DNA of 64,000 nucleotides from Escherichia coli (lineage in GTDB: Bacteria > Pseudomonadota > Gammaproteobacteria > Enterobacterales > Enterobacteriaceae): assembly GCF_017348835.2 (NCBI RefSeq), contig NZ_CP071375.1; one strand, 5' to 3'. Position 1 is the stretch's first letter. Each line of letters starts with the position of its first letter. The notes beneath the pieces are model-generated. The model made no database searches. It saw only the letters and a program-made list of their open reading frames with translations, and had not been told where the DNA came from. Below are positions 9,311 to 46,117 of the stretch, in pieces. Made by a program: the position numbers and the translations under genes.

Positions 9311-9420
9311 GCCGGATGCGGCGTGAACGCCTTATCCAGCCTACAAATTTGTGCAAATTCAATAAATTGCAGGAAATACGTAGGCCTGATAAGACGCGTC
9401 AAGCGTCGCATCAGGCATCG
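9311..9420. repeat. REP/BIME cluster between phr and dtpD
   Basis: GCCGGATGCGGCGTGAACGCCTTATCCAGCCTAC and GTAGGCCTGATAAGACGCGTCAAGCGTCGCATCAGGC are canonical E. coli REP palindromes in opposite orientation. Confidence 0.9.
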
Positions 9421-26763: not shown

Positions 26764-26884
26764 CGTAGGCCTGATAAGACGCGCAAGCGTCGCATCAGGC
26801 AACCAGTGCCGGATGCGGCGTGAACGCCTTATCCGGCCTACAAGTCATTACCCGTAGGCCTGATAAGCGCAGCGCATCAGGCGT
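26764..26884. repeat. REP/BIME cluster between sdhB and sucA
   Basis: Three REP units (GTAGGCCTGATAAGACGCGCAAGCGTCGCATCAGGC, GCCGGATGCGGCGTGAACGCCTTATCCGGCCTAC, GTAGGCCTGATAAGCGCAGCGCATCAGGC) in alternating orientation. Confidence 0.92.
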
Positions 26885-31116: not shown

Positions 31117-31288
31117 TGTAGACCGGATAAGACATTATCGCCTTCTCCGGCAATTGAAGCCTGATGCGACGCTTAACGCGTCTTATCAGGCCTACGGGAA
31201 GCACCGATGTAGGTCGGATAAGGCGCTCGCGCCGCATCCGACAAGCGATGCCAGATGCGACGCTTACACGTCTTATCAGGCCTACGGG
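31117..31288. repeat. REP/BIME cluster between sucB and sucC
   Basis: At least four REP-like palindromes (e.g. GCCTGATGCGACGCTTAACGCGTCTTATCAGGCCTAC, GTAGGTCGGATAAGGCGCTCGCGCCGCATCCGAC). Confidence 0.9.
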
Positions 31289-33406: not shown

Positions 33407-33505
33407 ATATCTGTAATAAGAAATAGCCCTCGCCGCTTCCCTCTACAGGAATGGCGAAGGGCTGTCGGTTTCGACATGGTTGGCCATCGTATGATGGCCT
33501 TTTTT
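33405..33505 (+). ncRNA. sdhX: SdhX (RybD) 3'UTR-derived sRNA of the sdh-suc transcript; 5' end approximate
   Basis: About 100 nt lie between the sucD stop and the operon terminator. Internal hairpin GCCCTCGCC...GGCGAAGGGC, then the terminator hairpin. The sRNA is assigned from established knowledge of this locus; the processing site cannot be read from DNA. Confidence 0.55.
33482..33505 (+). terminator. Rho-independent terminator of sdhCDAB-sucABCD / SdhX
   Basis: GGCCATC-gtat-GATGGCC stem-loop followed by TTTTTT. Confidence 0.9.
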
Positions 33506-34072
33506 ATGCCTTAAACGGTTAACCACGGTCGAAATCTGACTGCAGGCTTGACTGCATGACCACAGCCACTGTGGATTGTCGCAACCGACCGCAAGCCACG
33601 AATAAGAACGACGGCGAATTTCGAATCGTTACCTGATGCACTGGCTTCCCAGCGTTTGACCGTAGCGTTAAGTAAATCAACAAAAGCGATGTTCACCGCT
33701 TTTCGTCAAGTCGTGCCATTTGTCAGCCAGGATCGGGTCTTTACCCCGGATATTGCAGCATCGCAAAAATTCTTAGAGGGATATGCTATAAATCAAAAAT
33801 AAAATCTTTGTTGATTGTTTATCATAATATCCACAGATATGATAAATGATATCAATTTAATAATTTTCACTTAATGTGATTCCGGATAATTCGAAAGGCG
33901 CTGTGCTTTTCGGATTATTATTATCTGATTAAGATATTTGTCACGCCAGGCTTACTGGTTTATAAATGTCAATCATGATTCTTATAAATTATTTATTGCT
34001 GCTTTGGTTACCATTACTTCGTAATAAGTAATGTATTTTTGATTGTTTAAACTATTTTTAAGGGACGGCATT

Positions 34073-34978
34073 ATGCGAGGGAAAATACCTAAAACGGAAC
34101 TGCTGGTGACTTTTGAGGTCGTCGCACGTCATGAAAGTTATACCAGAGCGGCAGAGGAGTTAGCGTTAACCCAAAGTGCAGTATTCAGACAAGTAAGTGC
34201 GCTGGAGGAATTTTTACGTACTCCGTTATTTTCACACTCTAAAAAACGTATTTTTCTTAATGATGCAGGGAAGTATTACCTGGGGATAGTAAAAGAAACA
34301 TTAAATAAGCTGGAACGCGATACCAATACCATTATGACCTGGCAGCCTACGGTTCAGGTTATTGAACTTGCCGTTAATCCTACTTTTAGTACCCACTGGT
34401 TAATCCCAAATTTACATGAATTCACAAAGTTACATCCCGATATTATTGTTAATATTCATTCTTTAGCTAATAACGGCGATTTTCTTAATCGGGAGTACGA
34501 TGCTGTCATTATGCGCGAAAATTTTTGCGCGCCCTGGGCGGAAGTAGAATATCTCTTTGATGAGGAGATTTTGCCGGTATGCAGCGGCAGTTTGCTTGCA
34601 ATGTCCGATCAAAAACTGTCAGTGGCAGAACTGCTTACTGAGTTACCGCTTCTGCATCAAAGCACCCGTATTACTGGCTGGGAAGAGTGGTTTGCTTTAT
34701 CTGGCGTTAGCAGTCCGCTGGTCAATAACGGACCACGTTTCGATTTGCTATCAATGCTGATTGCCGCCGTGCGCTCTAATCTCGGCGTGGCGCTGTTACC
34801 ACGTTTCGCTATTCAACATGATTTGGATAGTGGCGATATGGTGATCCCCTGTGATGTGCCTATTCGTACCGGTAATCGTTTTATTATGACGTGGCAGGAA
34901 GAGAAGTCTGACTCACCGCACTTGCAGCAATTTCGTGAATGGTTGCTGGTGAAATCGGTCGTACCGCAGGAGATGTAA
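34073..34978 (+). CDS. LysR-family transcriptional regulator (accessory segment)
   Basis: Track ORF 34043..34978 trimmed to the ATG at 34073 (MRGKIPKTELLVTFEVVARHESYTRAAEELALTQSAVFRQVSALEEFL...), which has an AAGGGA Shine-Dalgarno. It has an N-terminal wHTH of LysR type plus a C-terminal substrate-binding-like domain. Not a K-12 gene at this locus. Confidence 0.85.
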   Translation: MRGKIPKTELLVTFEVVARHESYTRAAEELALTQSAVFRQVSALEEFLRTPLFSHSKKRIFLNDAGKYYLGIVKETLNKLERDTNTIMTWQPTVQVIELAVNPTFSTHWLIPNLHEFTKLHPDIIVNIHSLANNGDFLNREYDAVIMRENFCAPWAEVEYLFDEEILPVCSGSLLAMSDQKLSVAELLTELPLLHQSTRITGWEEWFALSGVSSPLVNNGPRFDLLSMLIAAVRSNLGVALLPRFAIQHDLDSGDMVIPCDVPIRTGNRFIMTWQEEKSDSPHLQQFREWLLVKSVVPQEM

Positions 34979-34981
34979 AAC

Positions 34982-35008
34982 CTGCGCCTGGCGGGATGCC
35001 AGGCGCAG
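34982..35008. terminator. Bidirectional hairpin between the convergent LysR gene and the adenosyltransferase gene
   Basis: Perfect 10-bp stem CTGCGCCTGG / CCAGGCGCAG with a 7-nt loop. It lies 4 nt after the LysR stop and 4 nt before the minus-strand stop. Flanking A/T runs are short. Confidence 0.65.
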
Positions 35009-35011
35009 TTA

Positions 35012-35614
35012 TTACCAGTCGATACCCGGCTGGGCCTGAATGCCGTTATCAAAAGCATGTTTGACGGGGCGGATTTCGCTTACCGTATCCGCCATTTTTA
35101 ATATCTGACTGTGGCAACCGCGTCCGGTGACAATGACACTTTGTTGTGCCGGGCGGTTTTGCAGAGAAGCGATCACTTCTTCGGTATCCAAATAATGGTA
35201 AGCCAGCATATAGGTCAGCTCATCAAGCACCACTAAGTCGTAACGCTTGTCAGCCAGCATCCGTTTGCTTTCCGACCAGACCTCTTTCGCCGCGTCGATA
35301 TCCGCTTGCCGGTTCTGTGTCTCCCAGGTAAAACCAGTTCCCATAATATGAAACTCAACCCCCAGCGGCTGGAGAAGGTTGTATTCGCCGTTGTCCCATT
35401 GCCCCTTGATGTACTGCGCAACCCCCACCGTTTTGCCATGACCCACCGCGCGCGTCACAGTACCAAACGCGGCAGTGGATTTCCCTTTGCCGTTGCCGGT
35501 GAAAACAATCAAGATCCCTTTTTTCTCTATCGCCGCTGCGACGCGCGTATCGACCTGTTCCTTCAATTTCTGTTGGCGCTGCACATGCCGTTCAGTTGAA
35601 ATTCGCGCTTCCAT
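35012..35614 (-). CDS. Corrinoid (cob(I)alamin/cob(I)yrinic acid a,c-diamide) adenosyltransferase, CobA/BtuR/CobO family
   Basis: 200-aa ORF with the P-loop GNGKGKSTAAFG and the family-typical ...VVLDELTY...VIVTGRG... layout. Last gene of the minus-strand cluster, 9 nt after the fumD stop. Confidence 0.88.
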   Translation of the reverse strand: MEARISTERHVQRQQKLKEQVDTRVAAAIEKKGILIVFTGNGKGKSTAAFGTVTRAVGHGKTVGVAQYIKGQWDNGEYNLLQPLGVEFHIMGTGFTWETQNRQADIDAAKEVWSESKRMLADKRYDLVVLDELTYMLAYHYLDTEEVIASLQNRPAQQSVIVTGRGCHSQILKMADTVSEIRPVKHAFDNGIQAQPGIDW

Positions 35615-35623
35615 TCATTTTCC

Positions 35624-37276
35624 TTAATGTCCCGCAGGGCAACTGGCGCAGCGATGTTGCTGCTCAAACTGACTAAAGAAATTATTGCCTTTATCATCTA
35701 CCAGGATGAATGCGGGCAGATTTTCCACTTCCATCATCCACACCGCTTCCATACCCAGCTCCGGATATTCCAGGCAACGCAGACTTTTGACATATTCTTG
35801 CGCCAGTAACGCAGCTGCACCGCCAATACTTCCCAGATTGAAGCCGCCATGTTTGTGACAGGCATCGGTGACCTGCTGGCTGCGGTTACCTTTCGATAAC
35901 ATCACCAGACTGCCGCCAGCCGCCTGGAAGGTATCGATATAACGGTCCATTCGACCGCCCGTGGTTGGACCCAGTGAACCGCAGGCCATGTTCTCCGGTG
36001 TTTTCGCCGGGCCAGCGTAATAGACAATATGATGCTTCAGGTACTCCGGCATCGATTCGCCGCTATCCAGCCGCGCTTTTATTTTGGCGTGGGCGATATC
36101 GCGCGCCACTACGATGGGACCACTTAACGACACGCGGGTGCCTACCGGTAATCTGGCGAGATCCAGCATCACGTCACGCAACGGACGGTTTAGATCCAGT
36201 TGTACATGTTGCGCGTGATTTTCTTCCCGCAATGAGGCTGGAATATATTGCCCCGGATTGTGTTCGAGTTTTTCCAGCCAGATACCGTGTTTGTTAATTT
36301 TTGCTTTGATATTGCGATCGGCAGAACAGGAGAGCGCCATAGCTATCGGGCAAGAGCCACCGTGACGCGGCAGACGAATGACGCGAATATCATGAGCGAA
36401 ATATTTCCCCCCAAATTGTGCACCAATACCAAATTGCTGACTGGCCTCGAGCAACACTTTTTCCAGCTCAATATCACGGAATGCTTGTCCCTGCTCGTTT
36501 CCGCTGGTGGGCAAATTGTCGTAATATTTCGTTGAGGCCAGCTTGGCAACTTTTAAGGTTTGATCGGCTGAAAGCCCTCCGACGGCAAAGGCGATGTGGT
36601 AAGGCGGGCAGGCAGCGGTGCCCAGCGATTTCATTTTTTCGATTAAAAATGCGGTCAGTTTTTCTGGTTGCAATAAGGATTTGGTTTCCTGATAAAGCGC
36701 GGCTTTATTGGCAGAGCCGCCTCCTTTATTAACACAGAGGAAATGGTACTCATCACCAGCGACAGCGCTGATATCAATCTGCGCCGGGAGATTGGTTTGC
36801 GTATTGACTTCGGTATACATATCCAGCGGCGCATTTTGTGAAAAGCGCAGATTATTTTCCTGGAAAGTACTGTAAATGCCTTTACTTAAGGCTTCGGCGT
36901 CGTTACTTCCGGTCCATATCTGTTGCCCTTTACTGGCAACAATAGTTGCGGTGCCGGTATCCTGACAGTTGGGTAATACCCCTTTTGCTGAGACTTCAGC
37001 ATTACGTAATAACTGCAACGCAACGTATTTATCATTACTACTGGCCTGCTGATCGTTAAGAATGCTGGCGACCTGTTGCAAATGAGTGGAACGTAAGAAA
37101 AAAGAGGCTTCATAAAATGCCTGCCGGGCAAGCAGCGTTAATGCTTCAGGAGTGATTTTTATCACTTCTTCGCCGTCTAATTCCGTTACTGTAATATGTT
37201 GATCGCTAATTAATGTATATTCTGTACCGTCTTTATTTTGTAGAAACGGTTCTTGCCAGATAAATGGTTTGGACAT
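35624..37276 (-). CDS. fumD: Class I (Fe-S) fumarate hydratase homolog; mesaconase/fumarase FumD
   Basis: 550-aa ORF collinear with remembered FumA (MSKPF..., [60 protein letters not shown]). Its position beside glutamate mutase and methylaspartase matches the described FumD. Confidence 0.9.
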
Positions 37277-37383
37277 ATTTCACTTTTCACCTTAAACGTT
37301 AGTGTTACTTAATTGCCGTCTAACTTCATGATCCGGCTTATAAAAATGCGTAGTCATTGGCTTCAGATTGCTTAAGAGCCCCC

Positions 37384-38664
37384 TCAGGGCAGAGCAACGT
37401 TCGATTCATTGGTTTTTAATGCTTTACCCCGACAGCCCTCGCCGAAATGTTCGCCTTCCCACCGACTCACCATCGCAGCGCCCATTGCGTTACTCATGAC
37501 GTTTGTCGCGGAACGCCCCATATCAAGGAACGGATCAACGCCCATCAGCAAGATCAGCCCCGCTTCCGGAATATTGAACTGGTTGAGCGTGGCGGCGATA
37601 ACCACCATTGAGGCGCGTGGTACGCCAGCCATTCCTTTCGAGGTCAACATCAGGATCAACAGCATGGTGATTTGCTCACCGATGGATAAATGGATATTGC
37701 AGGCCTGGGCGATGAAAACTGTGGCGAAGGAGCAGTAGGCCATTGATCCAACGAGATTAAATGAGTAGCCAATGGGTAAGACAAAGCTGGCAATTTTGGG
37801 GGAAACGCCAAATTGCTCCAGTTTTTCAAGCGTTCCCGGAAAAGCCGCTTCAGAACTGGATGTGGTAAATGCCAACAGGGCGGGTTCCGAAAGGGCGCGG
37901 GTCAGGCGTCTGATGCAGGGGCCGACATAAACGATGGCCAGACCGATAAGCAGCACCCAAAGTAATAACATGGTGAAATAAAATTCACCCATAAAGATCC
38001 CGGCGCTCACCATAACGGCCAGTCCTCGTTCAGCAATCAATGCTGAAATAGCGGCGAATACGGTCAGGGGAGCGAAGAGCATGACGTAGCCAGTGAGCTT
38101 TAACATGGCATGTGCCAGCGAATCTAAGGCGTGAACGATGGCGCTGCCTTTCTCGCCAATCGCCGTCAGGCTACAGCCGAGGAAAATTGAGAACACCACG
38201 ATTTGCAAAATTTCATTGTGCGCCATGGCATCGACAATGCTGGTGGGGAAAGCATGCGAAATAAATACTTTTAGCGTAAAGGGTTCTGCCGCGACCACTC
38301 CGGTGGTTTCGGCACCGTGTGCAACAAAATTAATTCCTGTACCTGGCATGAAGAAATTTACCGTTATCAAGCCTAAGGCAATTGACAGCAATGAGGCGCA
38401 AATAAATAAAAAGAGTGTTTTAGAAAAAATACGACCAAGGGCTTTAGCATCGCCCATTTTAGCAATACCTACCACCAGGGTAGAAACCACTAACGGAGCG
38501 ATAATCATTTTTATCAGTCGTAAGAAAATCGTCGTGAATATCGATATTTCTTGCGCATAGAGTTTTGCTGTTTCCGGTGAAGCAGTGTTATTGAGCACTA
38601 CGCCGATAATCATTCCAAGTACCAGCGCCAAAAGAATCATCGTGGTTAAACTTATTTTCTTCAT
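37384..38664 (-). CDS. Dicarboxylate/amino acid:cation symporter (DAACS; GltP/DctA-like)
   Basis: Track ORF 37384..38685 trimmed to the ATG at 38664 (MKKISLTTMILLALVLGMIIGVVLNN...), which follows a strong GGAGGA Shine-Dalgarno. Polytopic, with DAACS-like segments (SSSEAAFP, VPRASMVVIA, DMGRSATNV). Substrate unknown. Confidence 0.85.
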   Translation of the reverse strand: MKKISLTTMILLALVLGMIIGVVLNNTASPETAKLYAQEISIFTTIFLRLIKMIIAPLVVSTLVVGIAKMGDAKALGRIFSKTLFLFICASLLSIALGLITVNFFMPGTGINFVAHGAETTGVVAAEPFTLKVFISHAFPTSIVDAMAHNEILQIVVFSIFLGCSLTAIGEKGSAIVHALDSLAHAMLKLTGYVMLFAPLTVFAAISALIAERGLAVMVSAGIFMGEFYFTMLLLWVLLIGLAIVYVGPCIRRLTRALSEPALLAFTTSSSEAAFPGTLEKLEQFGVSPKIASFVLPIGYSFNLVGSMAYCSFATVFIAQACNIHLSIGEQITMLLILMLTSKGMAGVPRASMVVIAATLNQFNIPEAGLILLMGVDPFLDMGRSATNVMSNAMGAAMVSRWEGEHFGEGCRGKALKTNESNVALP

Positions 38665-38709
38665 TTTTTCCTCCATCAGGTGCACGGCGATAAATCAGAA
38701 TCAGGAGAA

Positions 38710-38741
38710 GTAGATGCCTGAATAGAGATTCAGGCATCTAC
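38710..38741. other. Perfect 14-bp stem-loop in the spacer between the DUF4387-like gene and the transporter gene
   Basis: GTAGATGCCTGAAT-agag-ATTCAGGCATCTAC. No clean T run on either side. Possible attenuator, RNA-stability or processing element. Confidence 0.6.
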
Positions 38742-38824
38742 CTGCTATTACAACCTTACAAATAGCTGAAGTGTTGAACTGCAATAAGTGACGGGATGTC
38801 AGTTGGCTAAAAGTGTTCGGATTT

Positions 38825-39142
38825 TTACAAATCGAAACTCATATTTAATAAAGGTGCGTGTTGCTGTGCACCATAGACATCATTGTCACCTACATTCCCG
38901 GAGATAATATCTCGTGGCATGACGATTTTTACTGCGTTAGAAGGATCAAACCAGACAATACGATGAATAAAGTCAGGTCCAACATGATATAAGCGCGCAA
39001 TCAGTTCTGGGGTTAATTGCCCTGATGATTTAACTCGCTCATAGTTTTCTTTGGTTTTAAATAAAATATCTAAAACCAGTTCGTAAGGTCCGGCATTTTT
39101 CGAACGAATGACTTGCGCCAGTGAGACAATTGACTGTTTCAT
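38825..39142 (-). CDS. Small conserved protein of unknown function (resembles DUF4387, the usual partner of AtuA-like proteins)
   Basis: 105-aa ORF MKQSIVSLAQVIRSKNAGPYELVLDILFKTKENYERVKSSG... Its ATG overlaps the stop of the upstream 456-aa ORF (ATGA). Family name is from memory and needs an HMM check. Confidence 0.7.
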   Translation of the reverse strand: MKQSIVSLAQVIRSKNAGPYELVLDILFKTKENYERVKSSGQLTPELIARLYHVGPDFIHRIVWFDPSNAVKIVMPRDIISGNVGDNDVYGAQQHAPLLNMSFDL

Positions 39143-40509
39143 GCCTGAACTCCTTCTGGCGTCACCTGTTCAATATGGAAATCAAAACGCAGAGCGTCGT
39201 TGGCTTCAATCAGGTGATATATGGAAAATTCGTATACCGGCCCGCCCTGGATATCAGAAGGGGAGAACGGGAACGCCAGATTGCCTGCGGTAGCGATGCG
39301 GTTTTCATAGCCGTAGTGCAGCATGGTAGAGCGCACCAGCGAGCAAACGCTATTGGCAATTTCCTGGGTCGGTGCAACTACATCAAGAACAATTCCCAGC
39401 TCATGCCCGGCAGTTTGCATCGGTTCATGGTCTCCCATCACCCCGTTTTTGCCGTACAGGTGGAAATTGATGCGAATGCTGTCATCGTCTAACGACAGGT
39501 TACGCGAAACGCTGGTTTTGACTTCATCGATGATTTTATCGATCCCGGCGATCATGATCGGGTCGCGCGTTCCGGCGATGGTCAGACAGCGGAAGCCCAC
39601 CCGTCGTGCACCTTCCAGTTTCAGGGCATACGGCGTTTCTTCATGCTTAGAACCGCTGACGTACACTTCGCCGTCATTGACCGCTTTAAATGTGCAGCCT
39701 TTCAGGTTCAACACGCCGCCAGGTCCTGGCAGGAAGTAGGGATCGGATTTCTCATACAGTGTGTGTGCAGCTGCTGACGTTTCGGTAAATTTACGCTTCG
39801 GATTAAATGTCTTCAGCGTAAAGCCGTTGTCATCAATGATGCCCATCGCACAGTCAGAGCCTGAGCCGGGCGTTGCAGCGATTGCCGCGCATTCAAGGAT
39901 TTTCCCACAATGCAGCGCCAGACCTTCATCAAAGCCTTGCATGATCGGGAGCGCTGCAAAGCAGGCCGGGTCGTAAGCGCGCCCGCCCAGCACCACTTGC
40001 GCGCCTTCTTTCAGCGCCCGCTGGAAGGGTTCGATGACCATTTGCGCAACGATATACGTACTTTCGTCAATCGCGTCGTGGGTTAACGGCGGGACAAAAT
40101 CCAGCGCCGTGATTTTGCCGTTATCCAGTGCCTGGTGGACGATGGCTTTGTCAACGTCTGCCGGGATCAACGCCATCGAGAACGAGAGGTGCTCTTCCTG
40201 GGCAATCTCATGAATTATTTCTCGGCACCACTCCAGGTGTGGTGCGGCACCAGAACCGCCGGCCGTTCCGATCACCACCGGTATATTATTTTGCACGCCT
40301 GCGGTGATCATATAGCGCAGATCGCGCTTGACTCCTGCGCGATCGGTAAATGGTTTGCCTGCCCCGAGGTAGTGGGGGCCTGGATCGGAAGAGCCTGCAT
40401 CAACGGCGATCAGATCGGGCGATTCTGCCATCGCTTTGCGGAAGCTCTCTTCCGGGAATCCATACCCGAGGATTGCCGTTGGCGATAAGACTTTAAAAGA
40501 ACGAGCCAT
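39139..40509 (-). CDS. Protein of unknown function, AtuA-like (DUF1446 family)
   Basis: 456-aa ORF MARSFKVLSPTAILGYGFPEESFRKAMAESPDLIAVDAGSSDPGPHYLG... It starts 3 nt after the methylaspartase stop. Soluble, with a glycine-rich VVIGTAGGSGAAP segment. Family name is from memory. Confidence 0.7.
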   Translation of the reverse strand: MARSFKVLSPTAILGYGFPEESFRKAMAESPDLIAVDAGSSDPGPHYLGAGKPFTDRAGVKRDLRYMITAGVQNNIPVVIGTAGGSGAAPHLEWCREIIHEIAQEEHLSFSMALIPADVDKAIVHQALDNGKITALDFVPPLTHDAIDESTYIVAQMVIEPFQRALKEGAQVVLGGRAYDPACFAALPIMQGFDEGLALHCGKILECAAIAATPGSGSDCAMGIIDDNGFTLKTFNPKRKFTETSAAAHTLYEKSDPYFLPGPGGVLNLKGCTFKAVNDGEVYVSGSKHEETPYALKLEGARRVGFRCLTIAGTRDPIMIAGIDKIIDEVKTSVSRNLSLDDDSIRINFHLYGKNGVMGDHEPMQTAGHELGIVLDVVAPTQEIANSVCSLVRSTMLHYGYENRIATAGNLAFPFSPSDIQGGPVYEFSIYHLIEANDALRFDFHIEQVTPEGVQA

Positions 40510-40512
40510 TTG

Positions 40513-41754
40513 TTAATCCTTAGCCTGCAACAGCGCGATAGTACGATTCATTTCGTTGAAGACGATATCGAGGCCTTCGTCAAAGCCCATCCCTGGCTTT
40601 ACCAGCATACGCATAGGGCGAGCGGCAAGGGCGACGTGGACACAGGTGCGGGCACTGACATCAGTTTCATTGCAGGTGCCGCCCTGGTACGCTTCCATGC
40701 TGTGGCTGTTGCAGTAAAGAACCGCATCGACGATGTTGTGAATACTGCCCAGATCTGGGGTTTTGATTTGTACCATGTGACAACTGGCGGCATCAGTGAA
40801 ATCAACAATATCCTGGTAGGTGTTACACCATTCATCGGCCACAATTTTCACGCCGGAACCGAGGCGCGTCAGCTCTTTGGTAATCGCGGTCAGCAGGCGA
40901 ATTTGATCGGGCTTGTTACCGGCATCGACCGGTCCTTCAATGTAGAGCGGCAGGCCTTGCGCTTCTTTTTCCAGGCTGGCGATGTATTGCGCACAGCGAA
41001 GCGGATCCATATCGAAGATCAGACCGATAGTGCCGTATACATCGATGTGCAGGGTAGGGTGGTAGCGTGCGCTGGTGCGCTTGCTTAGAATGCGATCCGA
41101 CAACCAGCGGACATATTCGCGCAGTTTTTCACCTTTAAAGCCCAGCTTCTCTTCGACGTTATTAATCAGCGCATGGGGCAGCACGTCGATGCCCTTAAGG
41201 ATCATCTTATCGACGGCGATATATCGATCGTCGCCGCTCTGACCAAATAATGGAATGGATTCCGCCACGCGTGGCAACTGCCATTCATCACAGACCACTT
41301 CAGTTTTCAAACGGCTGGTTGCCAGCGCGGTAGCATCAAGCAGCGCCTGTGATAATCCGTAGCGCACGGCGGTATGCAGCAAGTTGCCGTCAATACGCAA
41401 TTTGTCGAAGAAACGGGCATTCGGCAGGAAAGCATCCACATCGCGGCCTACCAGTAATGGCTTAATATGGTCGTTGAGGAACGGAATAAAGTGCTCTGCG
41501 AGGAACAGTGGATCGCGACCACCTGCCCCGGAATACTGTACGGCAGCACAGTCACCTACAGCGACCGCGCCGTTTTCCAGAATCAACTGTACCGATACGC
41601 ACTCCCCGGCCTGACGAACGGCGTTAAACCCCTGTGTTACCGGCTCCCCGGTATAAAAAAAGCCGTCATGACCCGCTCCGTTTTTTATCGCCTGCTGGTC
41701 ATCGAAATAGAATGAGGAATAGCCAGCGGTGAACAGGGCCTGTTTTATTTTCAT
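40513..41754 (-). CDS. mal: 3-methylaspartate ammonia-lyase (methylaspartase; enolase superfamily)
   Basis: 413-aa ORF collinear with remembered Clostridium tetanomorphum methylaspartase (FYFDDQ.AIK.GAGHDGF.YTG, DCAAVQYSGAGGRDPLFLA, VLPHALINNVEEKLG.KGEKL, ADEWCNT, HMVQIKTPDLG, GGTCNET, KPGMG.DEG). Same length. Confidence 0.93.
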   Translation of the reverse strand: MKIKQALFTAGYSSFYFDDQQAIKNGAGHDGFFYTGEPVTQGFNAVRQAGECVSVQLILENGAVAVGDCAAVQYSGAGGRDPLFLAEHFIPFLNDHIKPLLVGRDVDAFLPNARFFDKLRIDGNLLHTAVRYGLSQALLDATALATSRLKTEVVCDEWQLPRVAESIPLFGQSGDDRYIAVDKMILKGIDVLPHALINNVEEKLGFKGEKLREYVRWLSDRILSKRTSARYHPTLHIDVYGTIGLIFDMDPLRCAQYIASLEKEAQGLPLYIEGPVDAGNKPDQIRLLTAITKELTRLGSGVKIVADEWCNTYQDIVDFTDAASCHMVQIKTPDLGSIHNIVDAVLYCNSHSMEAYQGGTCNETDVSARTCVHVALAARPMRMLVKPGMGFDEGLDIVFNEMNRTIALLQAKD

Positions 41755-43199
41755 TATGGTCTTCCTATTAATTTACTGTGGGATACAGCATTGATGTCAT
41801 CTACAACCATCTGGAATGTCGGTTGGCGTCCTTCACAGCGTGCGCGTTCCGCAACGTAATCGTGGTGGAGGTCGAGAATATCTTTTGGCAATGGAACGGC
41901 TCCGGCTTCCAGTACGCGTATCGCGCCGGTGTTGTCACGGACCGGAAGAATTTTGCCCGCGTTGCAGGCGGCTGGCGCAAACGGCACATCCAGTACGCCC
42001 GCTTCAAATGCCAGCACCGTACCGCGCGCAATATCACCATTACCCAGTTCGAACACTTTATTCAGTACCGCGCGAACCTCGCTCTTAATCAGTTCAATTT
42101 CCAGTTCAACCGCAGGGCACGGCGGGAATTTCTGCTCATTGACCATGTTGAGCATCTGGCGGGAGGCTTTCAGCCCCTGAATGTTGGCAGCGGCAGTCGG
42201 GATACCCCAGGCTTCGTGCGGACTTTTGGTGATGACTTTAGTGGCACCAGACATCCCCGCGACGGCTGCGCCCCAGGAGATAATAGCGAACGCTTTCGAT
42301 TCGTCTTCCGGAAAGCCGCCCATCCACTGGTGAAACACGGTACTTAATTCATAGTCGGTATAGCCATAGCTCTGAAAGTATTCGTGTGCAAGTTCACGCA
42401 GAGACTGGATCGCCGCAACATCCTGCGTCAGGCTGCCGACCTGTCCATAACCAACGGTAATAGATTTCACACCCTGTTCCAGCGCCAGCAAGCCTTCGAT
42501 TATGGCGATAGAGTGCGAGATAAACGGCGGGATCAGCGTACCCGTTAGTGGGCCAAACGGTTCGCGGTTGATGCGGATCCCGTGTTCTTCATACATCCCC
42601 ATTAAACGATCACAGTACTGCCAGTCGCGGATCGATTTTTCCAGCGTTACGCGTTTGGCATACGGAATGTTGTAGGAAATGCCGCCGCCTTCATAACTGG
42701 TAAAGCCGCTGGCCATTGAGATTTCAGCCAGCAGACGCGCATCTGGCGTGCCGTGGCGGATCTGTAGCGGTTTTTGCAGGGTTTCGGTGAGGCGACGGCA
42801 AGCTGCGACACCATGGTTAACTACCGGTAAACCGTTCAGTTTAGAGGTTCCGGCTTCGATGGATTTTTTAATCCCTACAGCCGCTTCTTCGTACCGATTC
42901 AGACGGGTATATGCATCGATGGTGCTTGGCAGCAGATCGCACTCTTCTTGTAGTGTTTTCAGTAGTTCGATGTGTTCGTCCATCAGCGCCACACCTGCGC
43001 GCGGTTGGCTAAGGGTTTTACCTTCCTTGTCTGCTTTCAGCAGCGCAAGAGAGAAGCGTTTATGCTCAGGGATGGTTTGTTGGTATTTAACGCCATCTTC
43101 AAAGTTTTCAACATCCTTGCCGGTTTCCCAGGTTTTCAGTACCTGTTGCCGCTCGGTCATGAATTCGTCATGGGTTAATTTCTTATTTCGAAGTTCCAT
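41754..43199 (-). CDS. Glutamate mutase epsilon (E, catalytic) subunit (GlmE/MutE)
   Basis: 481-aa ORF MELRNKKLTHDEFMTERQQVLKTWETGKDV...SQPRAGVALMDEHIELLKTLQEE, which parallels remembered clostridial GlmE/MutE. Its stop overlaps the methylaspartase ATG by 1 nt. Confidence 0.9.
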   Translation of the reverse strand: MELRNKKLTHDEFMTERQQVLKTWETGKDVENFEDGVKYQQTIPEHKRFSLALLKADKEGKTLSQPRAGVALMDEHIELLKTLQEECDLLPSTIDAYTRLNRYEEAAVGIKKSIEAGTSKLNGLPVVNHGVAACRRLTETLQKPLQIRHGTPDARLLAEISMASGFTSYEGGGISYNIPYAKRVTLEKSIRDWQYCDRLMGMYEEHGIRINREPFGPLTGTLIPPFISHSIAIIEGLLALEQGVKSITVGYGQVGSLTQDVAAIQSLRELAHEYFQSYGYTDYELSTVFHQWMGGFPEDESKAFAIISWGAAVAGMSGATKVITKSPHEAWGIPTAAANIQGLKASRQMLNMVNEQKFPPCPAVELEIELIKSEVRAVLNKVFELGNGDIARGTVLAFEAGVLDVPFAPAACNAGKILPVRDNTGAIRVLEAGAVPLPKDILDLHHDYVAERARCEGRQPTFQMVVDDINAVSHSKLIGRP

Positions 43200-43217
43200 T
43201 GATTGCAGCCTTAATTG

Positions 43218-44606
43218 TTATAGGGTTAAGCATTGAATACTGGTGCGCGCGGCGGCCAGCGGATCGACTCTGGCGACGTTTGCCAGCAGTGGTAATAGCC
43301 CCGGGGAATCGCGGTAATATTCAAATTCGGTCGGTAAGAGAATGCGTTTACCGTCGTCGTTTAACTCGCGGTATTTCAACCAGTGATGCATATCGAACTG
43401 ACTGGCACGCGAGAGCCATCCGCCGGATCCGACGACTTTACGCACGGTTGTCAGGTCACGTCCCATCTGCAAATCGACATTGCCGACGCAGGTGCAGACC
43501 TCTTTTTTGGTGCCCGCATGTCTTTCGGTGGCATAACCCACACACAGTCCGGCCAGGACGGTATCGAAATATTTCTCTTCTGCATTTGCGGGTAAGTAGT
43601 CGGGATGAGCGACTAAATGACGGAGATAATGATAAAAAGCGTCCAGCTGTGCGGGTTGCTGAGCAAAATTCACATTGACTAACTCTTTCGCACTTTCACC
43701 AACCACCATTGCCGAGACGCGCATTCCCAGATCGCCTTCCACCGTCCGTTTCACGAAGGGTTCCGGTACGCCGTGTAAAACGGTGTCGGGCGAGAGCGTG
43801 TTGGCACAGGCGGAATAGACATCGGTGGTTGCGCCACCCATGTCGATCAGCATGAACTCTTTCCAGCTGTGATCGACGCTACTGATTGCCTTAACCAGTT
43901 CAAAGACTGTCCAAGGTGTCGGCATTGGTTCTTCGCCTGTTTTATCAACAATGACATCCAGCCCTTTCCCTTTAACGATGCGTTTAAGGAATATGTCGCA
44001 AATAGCCTGGCGTGCGGCTAAAGGGTTCGGATGGTCAAGATCGGGCAGAACATTGTCGACGATGGTCAGGTCTTTATGCCCGAGGATCTCCTGCACCTCG
44101 TCCTGAATATCCCGGTTTCCGGCATAAATAATGGCGCAGTCGAGTTTGGATTCTGCCAGCACACGGGCGTTATTCAGTCCGTAGCTTTCTTCTCCGCCGT
44201 CGGTGCCGCCGGTGAACAAGAGAATATCGGGCTGCGTTTCTTCCAGTGCCTGGATATCACGGCGGTTCAGCTTGTAGGCGTAATATTGCGCAATTTTAGC
44301 ACCCGCAGAGTGAGCGGTTACTTTCGCTGTTTCCAGGGTGATAGAAGGCACCAATCCCATTGCGGCAACCGCCAGCCCACCTTTGGCAGAGGAGGAATAC
44401 TTCAATGCAACCTCACCGCTGTTTAACAGGGGGAGGGCATTATCTACGTTTAACACCTGGTTCAGGCTGGAGAAAAACCCCTTCGCCAGATGATGGGTGG
44501 TGGTTGGGGTCAGTACGTGGTTAACCAACGTTAACGCGTCCCCCTCCCGGGTGAAGAGGGCTGCTTTGGTCCACGTCGATCCAATATCGACAGAGACGAT
44601 TTGCAT
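43218..44606 (-). CDS. Glutamate mutase L component (GlmL/MutL; ASKHA-type putative reactivase/chaperone)
   Basis: 462-aa [21 protein letters not shown]... (actin-like ATPase phosphate-1 motif DIGSTxTK). It lies between the S and E subunit genes as in the Clostridium mutS-mutL-mutE arrangement. Its ATG overlaps the S-subunit stop (TGATG). Confidence 0.85.
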   Translation of the reverse strand: MQIVSVDIGSTWTKAALFTREGDALTLVNHVLTPTTTHHLAKGFFSSLNQVLNVDNALPLLNSGEVALKYSSSAKGGLAVAAMGLVPSITLETAKVTAHSAGAKIAQYYAYKLNRRDIQALEETQPDILLFTGGTDGGEESYGLNNARVLAESKLDCAIIYAGNRDIQDEVQEILGHKDLTIVDNVLPDLDHPNPLAARQAICDIFLKRIVKGKGLDVIVDKTGEEPMPTPWTVFELVKAISSVDHSWKEFMLIDMGGATTDVYSACANTLSPDTVLHGVPEPFVKRTVEGDLGMRVSAMVVGESAKELVNVNFAQQPAQLDAFYHYLRHLVAHPDYLPANAEEKYFDTVLAGLCVGYATERHAGTKKEVCTCVGNVDLQMGRDLTTVRKVVGSGGWLSRASQFDMHHWLKYRELNDDGKRILLPTEFEYYRDSPGLLPLLANVARVDPLAAARTSIQCLTL

Positions 44607-45055
44607 CAGATTGCCTCTTCAAGAATGCGAGTATCAACGTCATGACGTTGGTTGATATCGTGGGCCATCAGCTGACAAACCTCTTCTAAGTCATGACTTG
44701 GGGCAAAGACGCGATCAAATCCCATCTCTTTGAACTTGTTTTCCACGTCAGCGAAGTCATGTTTTCCTACCACCAGGTTACCGCCCACATAGAGCAGGAT
44801 GTCCCCCAGTCCACGCTCGATGCAGCGTTCGCGCATGCCCAGACAGTCGATATCGCCATGCCCATAGATAGAGGAGACGACAATCGCGTCAGCGCCAGTT
44901 TCAATGGCAGCATCAATATATTCGTCCTGGCTGACCATTACGCCCAGATTAATGACTCTGAAGTCGTGGTTGCTAAAAACGCGGTCCAGAACTTTATTGC
45001 CTACTGCATGGCAGTCCGCGCCAATAACGCCAATCACAAGTGTTGCTTTCTTCAT
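44606..45055 (-). CDS. Glutamate mutase sigma (S, cobalamin-binding) subunit (GlmS/MutS of the methylaspartate pathway)
   Basis: Track ORF 44606..45118 trimmed to the ATG at 45055 ([24 protein letters not shown]...), with an AAGGA Shine-Dalgarno 7 nt upstream, giving 149 aa. It has the DxHxxG base-off/His-on B12 motif (DCHAVGNK) and parallels clostridial MutS. Confidence 0.9.
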
Positions 45056-45504
45056 GGGTAATCCTTTGTAAGACAGAGAGTAAAATAAGTTACACACGTC
45101 GTATTTATGGCCGTTCATAACGGCACAGGTTTAATATCACAGGAGTGTCTTTATCTGACCGTAATGTTGCAATTGATCTATTTTCAAAATGTCTTTCGGG
45201 AAATGATTGTTTAAAGTGTGTTTTTAAATTTCCATGTTAATTCAGTGTGTTATGTCAACTAATGTCATGAATGTTAAATTTTTAAAATTAACTTGATTTG
45301 GTGTATTGAGATATTTGTGATCTACTTCTAATTTGCATTTTAGTGATATGGGTTTAGCCATAAGTAAATGCATTTCATAAAATTTAAGTCGAATTTCACT
45401 ACCATTCATTTCTGCTTAATGTAAAAGTAATGTTGAAAATAACAAATGGTTAATGATTAATGCGAATTATGACCTTCGTTAGCTCTTTTGATTTGCGTAA
45501 AAAA

Positions 45505-45528
45505 GAGAGATACATAGAGAGATACATG
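45505..45528. repeat. Tandem 12-bp direct repeat in the AT-rich spacer
   Basis: GAGAGATACATA GAGAGATACATG, two adjacent copies with 11 of 12 identical. Confidence 0.8.
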
Positions 45529-45613
45529 AAGGTGCTACCAGTATGAGTAATGTTATTTAAAGGTTTTATTACGTCTGGCAATAACGCAGGTCATTTTTCG
45601 CGACTGGGTGGGT

Positions 45614-46036
45614 TTAATCAGTATAATCCTCATACAATAGTTCAGGATTAACTGAACCGTTAACGGAGTTTTGATGTTGAAATTTAGAAATGGCGGAGTC
45701 AATCAATGAAGACAGTATTGAAAAAATAACTGTGTCAGAACTAATTTCAATTAATCCTTCTCGTTGCTGACCAAAAAAGATATTTATCTTGATTTCATTT
45801 GTACTACGGCAATCAATATGCAGTAATTTTTGATCGCTGAGATTTTCTGTTTCATAAATGTTTTTGGCGATAGTCGGATGTATTGATGCCAGACATCTGC
45901 TCAGATAAGCCAGATCCTTTAGGGAACACCCCGCTGAGTAGAGGATGTCAGAGAATTTTTGTGTGTCAACTGTTGGCTCTGAAGCGTATGTTGCATTGAC
46001 TGGAAGAGTATTGAAAGAGATCTGAGATGGTATCAT
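45614..46036 (-). CDS. Hypothetical acidic protein, 140 aa, AT-rich orphan
   Basis: ORF MIPSQISFNTLPVNATYASEPTVDTQKFSD...; no signal peptide or TM segment. About 17 D/E versus 9 K/R by my count. It lies 81 nt downstream of the 314-aa ORF on the same strand. The Shine-Dalgarno is weak and I recognise no family. Confidence 0.55.
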   Translation of the reverse strand: MIPSQISFNTLPVNATYASEPTVDTQKFSDILYSAGCSLKDLAYLSRCLASIHPTIAKNIYETENLSDQKLLHIDCRSTNEIKINIFFGQQREGLIEISSDTVIFSILSSLIDSAISKFQHQNSVNGSVNPELLYEDYTD

Positions 46037-46117
46037 TATTTAAATCTTTCCGTGAGTAATAAAAATTAATCCCCAGGCATTGTTTAGCAATATTTGCCAT
46101 AGGGGATATATAGAAAA

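Follow-up and report, generated by a model that had tools for sequence, protein, structure and literature searches.

A close orthologue of citramalate lyase CmlAB in the Escherichia coli glutamate island and the probable completeness of its methylaspartate pathway

Results and Discussion

We analysed a 64-kb stretch of E. coli DNA, referred to below as the window, which carries an accessory island located between sucD and cydA. By sequence, the AtuA/DUF4387 pair at 38825-40509 is a close orthologue of the structurally characterised citramalate lyase CmlB/CmlA. The island therefore appears to encode every step that leads from glutamate to pyruvate and acetate, and we consider it highly probable that this region specifies a methylaspartate pathway for glutamate catabolism that is complete and self-contained, with CmlAB carrying out the lyase step.

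Layout of the island

Positions 35012-45055, limits that coincide exactly with the cobO stop and the glmS start, hold glmS-glmL-glmE-mal, the AtuA/DUF4387 pair, the genes for a DAACS carrier and a FumD-type fumarase, and cobO, all on the minus strand. The gene inventory given for this region in the initial annotation was borne out by Pfam and NCBIfam family matches. The island and its flanks contain the following features:

34073..34978, plus strand: LysR-family regulator (Pfam HTH_1 and LysR_substrate; RefSeq CDS, L001 18062-18967), convergent with the operon end
34982..35008, minus strand: strong terminator-like hairpin (consensus scan; 11-bp stem, 9 G-C), directly past the cobO stop
35012..35614, minus strand: cobO/btuR-type ATP:cob(I)alamin adenosyltransferase (Pfam CobA_CobO_BtuR, E 4.7e-64)
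35624..37276, minus strand: fumD, class I fumarase/mesaconase, mesaconate to (S)-citramalate (Pfam Fumerase and Fumerase_C)
37384..38664, minus strand: DAACS (SDF family) dicarboxylate/amino acid:cation symporter (Pfam SDF, E 3e-102)
38825..39142, minus strand: cmlB, predicted small citramalate lyase subunit (Pfam DUF4387, E 7.6e-39; match to PDB 9erq_B/9evf)
39139..40509, minus strand: cmlA, predicted large citramalate lyase subunit (AtuA/DUF1446 family), (S)-citramalate to pyruvate and acetate (or acetyl unit)
40513..41754, minus strand: mal, 3-methylaspartate ammonia-lyase, methylaspartate to mesaconate and NH3 (Pfam MAAL_N and MAAL_C)
41754..43199, minus strand: glmE, catalytic E subunit of glutamate mutase (Pfam Met_asp_mut_E, E 1.7e-214)
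43218..44606, minus strand: glmL/mutL, glutamate mutase accessory protein, reactivating and chaperone-like (Pfam MutL, E 3.8e-139; RefSeq glmL)
44606..45055, minus strand: glmS, B12-binding S subunit of glutamate mutase and first operon gene (Pfam B12-binding; RefSeq CDS)
45056..45613, minus strand: AT-rich region of 558 nt, about 30-39% GC, 5' of glmS, presumed promoter/regulatory region (sequence and composition)

The whole window is collinear with E. coli PE164 at 99.99%. The "glutamate fermentation" cluster ECs0755-ECs0764 of O157:H7 (Kronen & Berg 2015, PMC4682846) is the same island at the same sucD-cydA site, and all nine ORFs of the island are full length and 98.5-100% identical to their counterparts in O157:H7 Sakai, the characterised mesaconase FumD included. 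FumD matches ECs0757 at 542 of 550 residues (98.5%) and scores 1271 bits on the class I fumarase model NCBIfam NF011921 (cutoff 1060). The cobO product is 100% identical to ECs_0756 and Mal is 99.5% identical to ECs_0761; the O157:H7 MAL works in vivo (bioRxiv 10.1101/2025.11.12.688011).

From glmS to cmlB the junctions are either overlapping or gaps of at most 18 nt, and the genes probably form a single operon under the LysR regulator. In Citrobacter, Klebsiella, Salmonella, Buttiauxella and Pseudescherichia loci, too, the LysR gene lies at the distal end in opposite orientation, and its product is a putative regulator of the island. The hairpin past cobO is likely the 3' end of the operon. 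An AAGGA motif precedes the glmS ATG at 45055. Sigma-70-like sites did not exceed the number expected from shuffled sequence (17 found against 24 expected), and no such site upstream of glmS was convincing; Rfam over the whole window detected no cobalamin riboswitch or other element within the island. Two ORFs further upstream of glmS (45614-47062) were considered as pathway members and left out of the system, since neither matches a family in Pfam, NCBIfam or PADLOC and none of the 80 related loci contains them.

All parts of the pathway are present: glutamate mutase S and E together with L, methylaspartase, mesaconase and, as CmlAB, the citramalate lyase. Glutamate would enter the cell presumably through the DAACS carrier, whose gene accompanies the cluster chiefly in Enterobacterales and Aeromonas. 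The carrier scores below both equivalog cutoffs (GltP, 303 bits against 638; DctA, 314 against 513), so the models assign it no substrate. B12-dependent GlmS/GlmE would then convert glutamate into (2S,3S)-3-methylaspartate, with GlmL reactivating the mutase and CobO providing adenosylcobalamin. Mal would deaminate methylaspartate to mesaconate, FumD would hydrate mesaconate to (S)-citramalate, and the heteromer of the AtuA-family and DUF4387 proteins, CmlA/CmlB, would cleave citramalate into pyruvate and a C2 unit (acetate).

Identity of the AtuA/DUF4387 pair

The larger protein aligned with subunit A of PDB 9ERQ/9EVF over residues 1-456 of both without gaps (E 6e-292), with 421 of 456 residues identical (92.3%), and its fold is the same (TM 0.95). 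The smaller protein matched 9erq_B/9evf over its full length, again without gaps (E 1.3e-56; 88/104 identical, 84.6%). The subunit lengths, 456 and 105 aa, are those of the PDB CmlAB, a fold with no other solved relatives. The depositors named the chains "Citramalate lyase subunit A (cmlA) / B (cmlB)", and the two complexes are AMPPNP-citramalate and ADP-pyruvate. In Pfam, both proteins scored above the gathering cutoffs, with 65.3 bits for AtuA (PF07287; gathering cutoff 22.8) and 132.8 bits for DUF4387 (PF14330; gathering cutoff 27). The window protein agrees with the PDB chain at all 164 columns that are invariant in 23 CmlA homologues, a measure of invariance and not of ligand contacts.

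The crystallised chains probably come from Raoultella planticola. When R. planticola cmlAB is placed in E. coli, growth on mesaconate via FumA and Cml needs the cml plasmid, and acetyl-CoA acquires label from mesaconate; the products are given as pyruvate and acetate, and ATP is nowhere mentioned (bioRxiv 10.64898/2026.01.16.699985). Since a literature search for a primary biochemical paper on CmlAB found none, its matches being the 2015 FumD paper and this 2026 preprint using the enzyme, the functional evidence consists of the depositors' names and titles and a preprint in which the enzyme serves as a tool. From their similarity, the E. coli proteins are expected to share the activities of these orthologues.

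The initial annotation held that nothing in the cluster cleaves citramalate and that the pathway is open-ended in cis. Both statements are refuted by the finding that 38825-39142 and 39139-40509, already listed there as ORFs, are the CmlB/CmlA orthologue. Of the three ways out that it offered, the one in which this pair supplies the step is backed by the CmlAB orthology, by synteny and by the in vivo use of the orthologue. As it correctly stated, the FumD study had left the fate of citramalate open; in that study the DUF1446 gene of the cluster was called "unknown" (PMC4682846).

Other routes for citramalate in the window and the genome

We found no gene for a CitDEF-type lyase or for the citramalyl-CoA route in the window. 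With the K-12 proteins CitC/D/E/F/X/G as queries, tblastn over the six-frame translation of the 64 kb returned nothing at E<=0.01, and the RefSeq annotation of the matching PE164 stretch contains no CitDEF, CitE-like lyase or CoA-transferase, in agreement with the initial annotation. Across the annotated window, the nearest functions are only sucCD (ligase) and ybgC (thioesterase). In Burkholderia and itaconate degraders, succinyl-CoA:citramalate CoA-transferase and (S)-citramalyl-CoA lyase also turn mesaconase-made citramalate into pyruvate and a C2 unit (PMC4682846); that route needs a CoA-transferase and a CitE-like lyase, neither of which is in the window.

A distal enzyme, such as the core CitDEF, isocitrate lyase or methylisocitrate lyase, might cleave citramalate instead. 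Clostridial citrate and citramalate lyases are homologous (PMC4682846), and nearly all complete E. coli genomes (5421 of 5426) carry citDEF. However, citrate-grown O157:H7 extracts with 0.48 U/mg citrate lyase had no detectable citramalate lyase, and neither these nor extracts with 0.79 U/mg isocitrate lyase or with methylcitrate-pathway activity exceeded 1 mU/mg (PMC4682846). Moreover, citDEF lies about 115 kb from the island site in K-12 and belongs to the core set, whereas the island is accessory. We regard recruitment of a distal enzyme as extremely improbable.

Synteny across phyla

The gene cmlB directly follows cmlA in 77 of 77 loci, and glmS-L-E-mal stands directly upstream of cmlAB in 58 of the 64 informative ones. 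The glm-mal-cmlAB arrangement ranges over Enterobacterales, Aeromonas, Rhodocyclales, Riflebacteria, Spirochaetes, Lentisphaerota, Aminicenantes, Holophaga, Bacillota and Planctomycetota. Of six cmlAB loci without glm-mal, four were looked at (Desulfospira, Shewanella, Syntrophobacter and Peptococcaceae), and only the last was informative: it carries a TRAP transporter, cmlAB and a split class I fumarase without glm or mal, and is an independent cmlAB module.

In clostridia, the known citramalate lyase is a CitDEF-type enzyme served by the accessory proteins CitCXG (Buckel & Bobi 1976, cited in PMC4682846), and it catalyses the same reaction at the same pathway position as CmlAB. It is encoded beside glm-mal and mesaconase genes, with citDEF in the place of CmlAB in clostridial clusters (PMC4682846). 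CitDEF relies on an acyl-carrier subunit whose prosthetic group is phosphoribosyl-dephospho-CoA, whereas CmlAB lacks any Cit homologue and, in the PDB complexes, has an adenine nucleotide bound. The two types were never found together in one locus: CitC/D/E/F/X/G occurred in none of 80 cmlA loci, and among mal-anchored metagenome loci cmlA was found in 10 (9-151 nt past mal), citD/E/F in 21 and both in none. CmlAB is a non-homologous replacement of the clostridial acyl-carrier enzyme.

The position of the pair also bears on whether the pathway might instead stop at mesaconate or citramalate, which would be exported, for example via the DAACS carrier, and perhaps act on the host, the AtuA/DUF4387 pair being unrelated. 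Citramalate secretion was raised by Kronen & Berg, whose extracts lacked citramalate lyase activity (PMC4682846), and the carrier's missing substrate assignment leaves room for such a role. However, the island was not expressed in the cells extracted (no methylaspartase activity) and the assay was free of nucleotide, and therefore the negative lyase result has no bearing on CmlAB. The pair also shares 92% and 85% identity with a lyase whose crystal structures hold citramalate in one case and pyruvate in the other, is packed tightly behind mal, and accompanies glm-mal in phyla without the DAACS gene. Since cmlA begins 3 nt past mal and its stop overlaps the cmlB start by 4 nt, export or operation in the reverse direction, as suggested in the initial annotation, is made unnecessary, and we consider export very unlikely.

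Proposed cleavage chemistry

The free C4 carboxylate of citramalate would otherwise be unable to give a stabilised enolate. Because the PDB titles place AMPPNP with citramalate and ADP with pyruvate, it is most likely that ATP activates this carboxylate. ATP might be used stoichiometrically, with acetyl phosphate released and turned into ATP and acetate by acetate kinase, or it might prime an acyl-enzyme, for which the family-invariant Cys207 is the candidate residue. A purely structural or allosteric nucleotide is possible, and which of these applies is probably already known to those who deposited 9ERQ/9EVF.

Terpene-pathway AtuA (Pseudomonas, Thauera) has the PF07287 and DUF4387 module in common with CmlAB. 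Unlike CmlAB, it is a single chain that acts on a CoA-ester substrate; its reaction, itself a tentative assignment, is acetate release from a tertiary hydroxy acid, as proposed for CmlAB. Fused AtuA-DUF4387 chains of 608-735 aa, which came from a representative-library search, share 58 invariant residues with CmlA, and the sampled forms are only 37-45% identical to it. The top 120 matches of a CmlB homology search were all stand-alone DUF4387 proteins and uninformative on fusions. As a tentative proposal, CmlAB may be an ATP-dependent C-C lyase forming pyruvate and either acetyl phosphate or a Cys207 acetyl-enzyme, and the wider AtuA/DUF4387 family, including terpene-pathway AtuA and eukaryote-like fused forms, may share a CoA- and ACP-independent expulsion of acetate from tertiary hydroxy acids. 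If true, this would account for the fact that citramalate lyase never showed up in enterobacteria when assayed without nucleotide.

Distribution and integrity

The island is present in 1135 of 5426 complete E. coli genomes, about a fifth. It might be a cryptic, silenced acquisition whose pathway is complete and makes no contribution under any natural condition. E. coli does not synthesise B12 de novo and the region 5' of glmS is AT-rich, both of which agree with silencing. For O157:H7, Kronen & Berg found no conditions under which the cluster was expressed, no methylaspartase activity and no growth gain from glutamate (PMC4682846). However, 1117 genomes retain an intact island at this site (coverage of 80% or more, identity of 95% or more), cmlA and cmlB are under strong purifying selection (dN/dS 0.03-0.07, with mal and glmE in the same range), and a dedicated adenosyltransferase, a transporter and a regulator are aboard. 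A cryptic island is therefore unlikely in our view.

Significance

The identity of the citramalate lyase is already known to the field and is not new; the 9ERQ/9EVF structures became public in October 2025, and pathway engineers already make use of the enzyme. Public annotation has not followed. RefSeq names the pair "AtuA family protein" and "DUF4387", Sakai and older records call them "acyl-CoA synthetase" and "3-methylaspartate ammonia-lyase", and NCBIfam has no model for CmlA or CmlB. With such labels, metabolic reconstructions of these genomes will wrongly show a dead end.

The fate of citramalate in pathogenic enterobacteria has been an explicit question since 2015, and the answer appears to lie within the island itself. 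About one fifth of complete E. coli genomes, O157:H7 included, would carry genes for every step of a B12-dependent conversion of glutamate to pyruvate, acetate and ammonia, and so would Citrobacter, Salmonella, Klebsiella, Yersinia and Morganella loci and many anaerobes.

Gene content and setting of the island

The window is E. coli chromosome, and all 64 kb are collinear with strain PE164 at 99.99%. The island lies on the minus strand, with the cobO stop (35012) at one end and the glmS start (45055) at the other, exactly as initially annotated.

Genes of the island, assigned by Pfam and NCBIfam
44606-45055 (-), glmS, transcribed first
43218-44606 (-), glmL
41754-43199 (-), glmE
40513-41754 (-), mal
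39139-40509 (-), AtuA-family ORF (cmlA)
38825-39142 (-), DUF4387 ORF (cmlB)
37384-38664 (-), DAACS/SDF carrier
35624-37276 (-), class I fumarase (fumD)
35012-35614 (-), cobO, transcribed last

The glmS ATG (45055) is preceded by AAGGA. Intergenic distances from glmS through the DUF4387 gene are -1, 18, -1, 3 and -4 nt, the DAACS carrier gene is bordered by gaps of 160 nt and 107 nt, and the fumarase-cobO gap is 9 nt. A strong hairpin lies 3' of cobO, and a LysR gene is convergent with the operon end. The genes are probably carried on a single transcript, which may be under LysR control.

Between sucD and cydA (33407-47800), the island sits where K-12 has sdhX-mngR-mngA-mngB, making them alternative cargoes of a single chromosomal site. 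No Rfam match to SdhX was found downstream of sucD in the window; a terminator-like hairpin was seen at 33482-33499 in the same interval. Two hypothetical ORFs, 45614-46036 (-) of 140 aa and 46118-47062 (-) of 314 aa, lie between glmS and cydA in a stretch of 28-39% GC. They matched no Pfam, NCBIfam or PADLOC family, occurred in none of the 80 related cmlA loci, and are only 95% identical to the O157:H7 Sakai sequence, compared with 98.5-100% for the pathway genes. Elsewhere in the window, the Lys/Val tRNA array after cpoB (56964-57683) has 6 tRNAs, versus 7 annotated in PE164, and the alignment to PE164 is interrupted within it at 57278-57305, suggesting that the window lacks one of the repeat units. 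The window also contains common E. coli RNA elements unrelated to the island.

RNA elements of the window
26768-26838 (-), naRNA4
31212-31282 (+), naRNA4
9345-9387 (+), ES036
55899-56037 (+), cpoB/ybgF thermometer

The AtuA/DUF4387 pair is very probably a citramalate lyase

The initial annotation listed no classical citramalate lyase or CoA-transferase gene, and both its inventory and this absence were borne out. RefSeq genes of the whole matching stretch are kdp, pxp, the ybg fimbrial genes, gltA, sdh, suc, the island, cyd, tol-pal, tRNAs, nadA, aroG, gpmA and others, with no CitDEF, CitE-like lyase or CoA-transferase among them. K-12 CitC, CitD, CitE, CitF, CitX and CitG gave no match at E<=0.01 when searched against every frame of the window by tblastn.

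The AtuA-family protein aligned end-to-end with chain A of PDB entries 9ERQ/9EVF (E 6e-292, 421/456 identical), which the depositors named 'Citramalate lyase, subunit A (cmlA)', and the DUF4387 protein matched chain B, 'subunit B (cmlB)', at 88 of 104 residues. One structure, titled 'Citramalate lyase - AMPPNP - citramalate complex', was released on 2025-10-22, and the other, 'Citramalate lyase - ADP - pyruvate complex', on 2025-10-08. Expression of Raoultella planticola cmlAB in E. coli conferred growth on mesaconate, which was abolished by plasmid curing, and acetyl-CoA in the expressing cells received label from mesaconate (bioRxiv 10.64898/2026.01.16.699985). Since the 92%-identical orthologue of the AtuA ORF is a citramalate lyase, the statement that nothing in the cluster cleaves citramalate does not hold, and the pathway is not open-ended in cis. 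The suggestion that the pair at 38825-40509 supplies the lyase step was the right one.

In the proposed pathway, GlmS/E, aided by GlmL and CobO, would convert glutamate to methylaspartate, Mal would yield mesaconate, FumD would hydrate it to (S)-citramalate, and CmlAB would release pyruvate and acetate. Mal of O157:H7 is active in vivo (bioRxiv 10.1101/2025.11.12.688011). These four predicted steps from glutamate to pyruvate and acetate, by Glm, Mal, FumD and CmlAB, are shown or strongly supported. The DAACS carrier is a presumed glutamate importer; it scores below both the GltP and the DctA equivalog cutoffs.

Relation to the O157:H7 cluster

The island is the 'glutamate fermentation cluster' of O157:H7 described by Kronen & Berg (2015; PMC4682846). 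Sakai ECs_0755-0764 occupies the same sucD-cydA site. Protein identity to the window is 98.5-100%, and the set includes FumD (ECs0757), which was purified and preferred mesaconate (PMC4682846). In that paper the fate of citramalate was 'still unclear' and the DUF1446 gene was listed as unknown. Citramalate lyase activity was absent from extracts in which citrate lyase, isocitrate lyase or enzymes of the methylcitrate pathway were abundant (PMC4682846), which rules out recruitment of a distal enzyme such as citrate lyase, another option raised initially. The citDEF genes belong to the core set (5421/5426 genomes), and the island is accessory (1135/5426). The cells assayed in 2015 did not express the island, as they had no methylaspartase activity, and the assay mix was nucleotide-free (PMC4682846); for both reasons, these negative assays are silent on CmlAB.

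Kronen & Berg observed no laboratory expression of the cluster (PMC4682846). Every island ORF is intact, and dN/dS of cmlA and cmlB against Citrobacter and Salmonella is 0.03-0.07, an approximate value as dS is near saturation; mal and glmE are alike. Upstream of glmS lies an AT-rich region of 558 nt, in which there was no recognised riboswitch and no clear promoter.

RefSeq, Pfam and NCBIfam names do not yet reflect citramalate lyase. In Sakai (L085, 21934-23618) the DUF4387 gene is mislabelled 'acyl-CoA synthetase' and cmlA '3-methylaspartate ammonia-lyase', a name also given to CmlA homologues from Salmonella, Riflebacteria and Lentisphaerae in several NCBI records (e.g. P0002, P0059, P0072).

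Distribution of cmlAB and citDEF

When one genome from each species was scanned, 80 cmlA loci were found. They represent Enterobacterales, Aeromonas, Rhodocyclales, Rhodospirillales, Riflebacteria, Spirochaetes, Lentisphaerota, Aminicenantes, Holophaga, many Bacillota and Planctomycetota. Immediately downstream of cmlA, cmlB was found at 77/77 loci with DNA there, and glmS-glmL-glmE-mal lay immediately upstream at 58 of the 64 with enough upstream DNA. Cit genes were found within 10 kb of cmlA at none of the 80. As a reciprocal test, metagenome contigs were anchored on mal: cmlA followed mal by 9-151 nt in 10 loci, citD/E/F occurred in 21, and both in 0 (Fisher p ~5e-6, an indication only, as the loci are not phylogenetically independent). 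This split is the pattern expected of two non-homologous enzymes for one step, in line with the citDEF-type citramalate lyase genes of clostridial clusters (PMC4682846). Four wide-flank mal loci had neither. Over ~10 kb on each side, cmlAB and citDEF were both missing from glmS-L-E-mal loci on L094 and L109, which belong to the L094-L110 series of human-gut contigs, and on L133 and L142. Their lyase may be encoded elsewhere, or they may use yet another solution.

On an uncultured Peptococcaceae contig (L072, 5681-16132), cmlAB lies between a TRAP dicarboxylate transporter (DctP/DctM) and a split class I fumarase, also flanked by MerR and a sigma-54 activator, with no glm or mal at the locus. 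The presence of fumarase without glm or mal ties CmlAB to the mesaconase product, not to glutamate mutase, and the locus looks like a stand-alone module for mesaconate or citramalate use.

Role of the bound nucleotide

Cleavage of a free carboxylate would need an unstabilised acetate enolate, and for this reason the known lyases act on thioesters (acyl-S-ACP or CoA). CmlAB has neither; one of its crystal structures contains an ATP analogue together with the substrate, the other ADP together with the product. We infer its cleavage chemistry as one of three readings. ATP may be a stoichiometric co-substrate, giving citramalyl phosphate and then acetyl phosphate, which would be ATP-neutral after acetate kinase acts. 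By analogy with citrate lyase, ATP could instead prime an acyl-enzyme that turns over by acyl exchange, with Cys207 of the HxGKIxEC motif as a candidate residue. Alternatively, the nucleotide may be structural or allosteric.

In a structure search, the CmlAB fold was shared with no other solved structure. When CmlA is compared with distant fusions of AtuA and DUF4387 in a single chain, D37xGSxDxGP, GGxGxxxH91, GRxxDP181, HxGKIxEC207, HxLYE253, KxE299, N410 and YH432 are invariant, and this residue set suggests a mechanism common to the AtuA/DUF4387 family. A 1096-aa protein of the representative library (P0372) is a triple fusion of AtuA, DUF4387 and a family III CoA-transferase. This fusion hints that some proteins of the AtuA family work on CoA esters or hand over to them, a role also proposed for the terpene-pathway AtuA.

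Neither part of the system is new: the cluster was described in 2015, and the lyase is known from the 2025 structures and its use in the 2026 preprint. What is still of interest is the part played by the nucleotide, the reach of the mechanism in the AtuA family, and when E. coli turns the island on.
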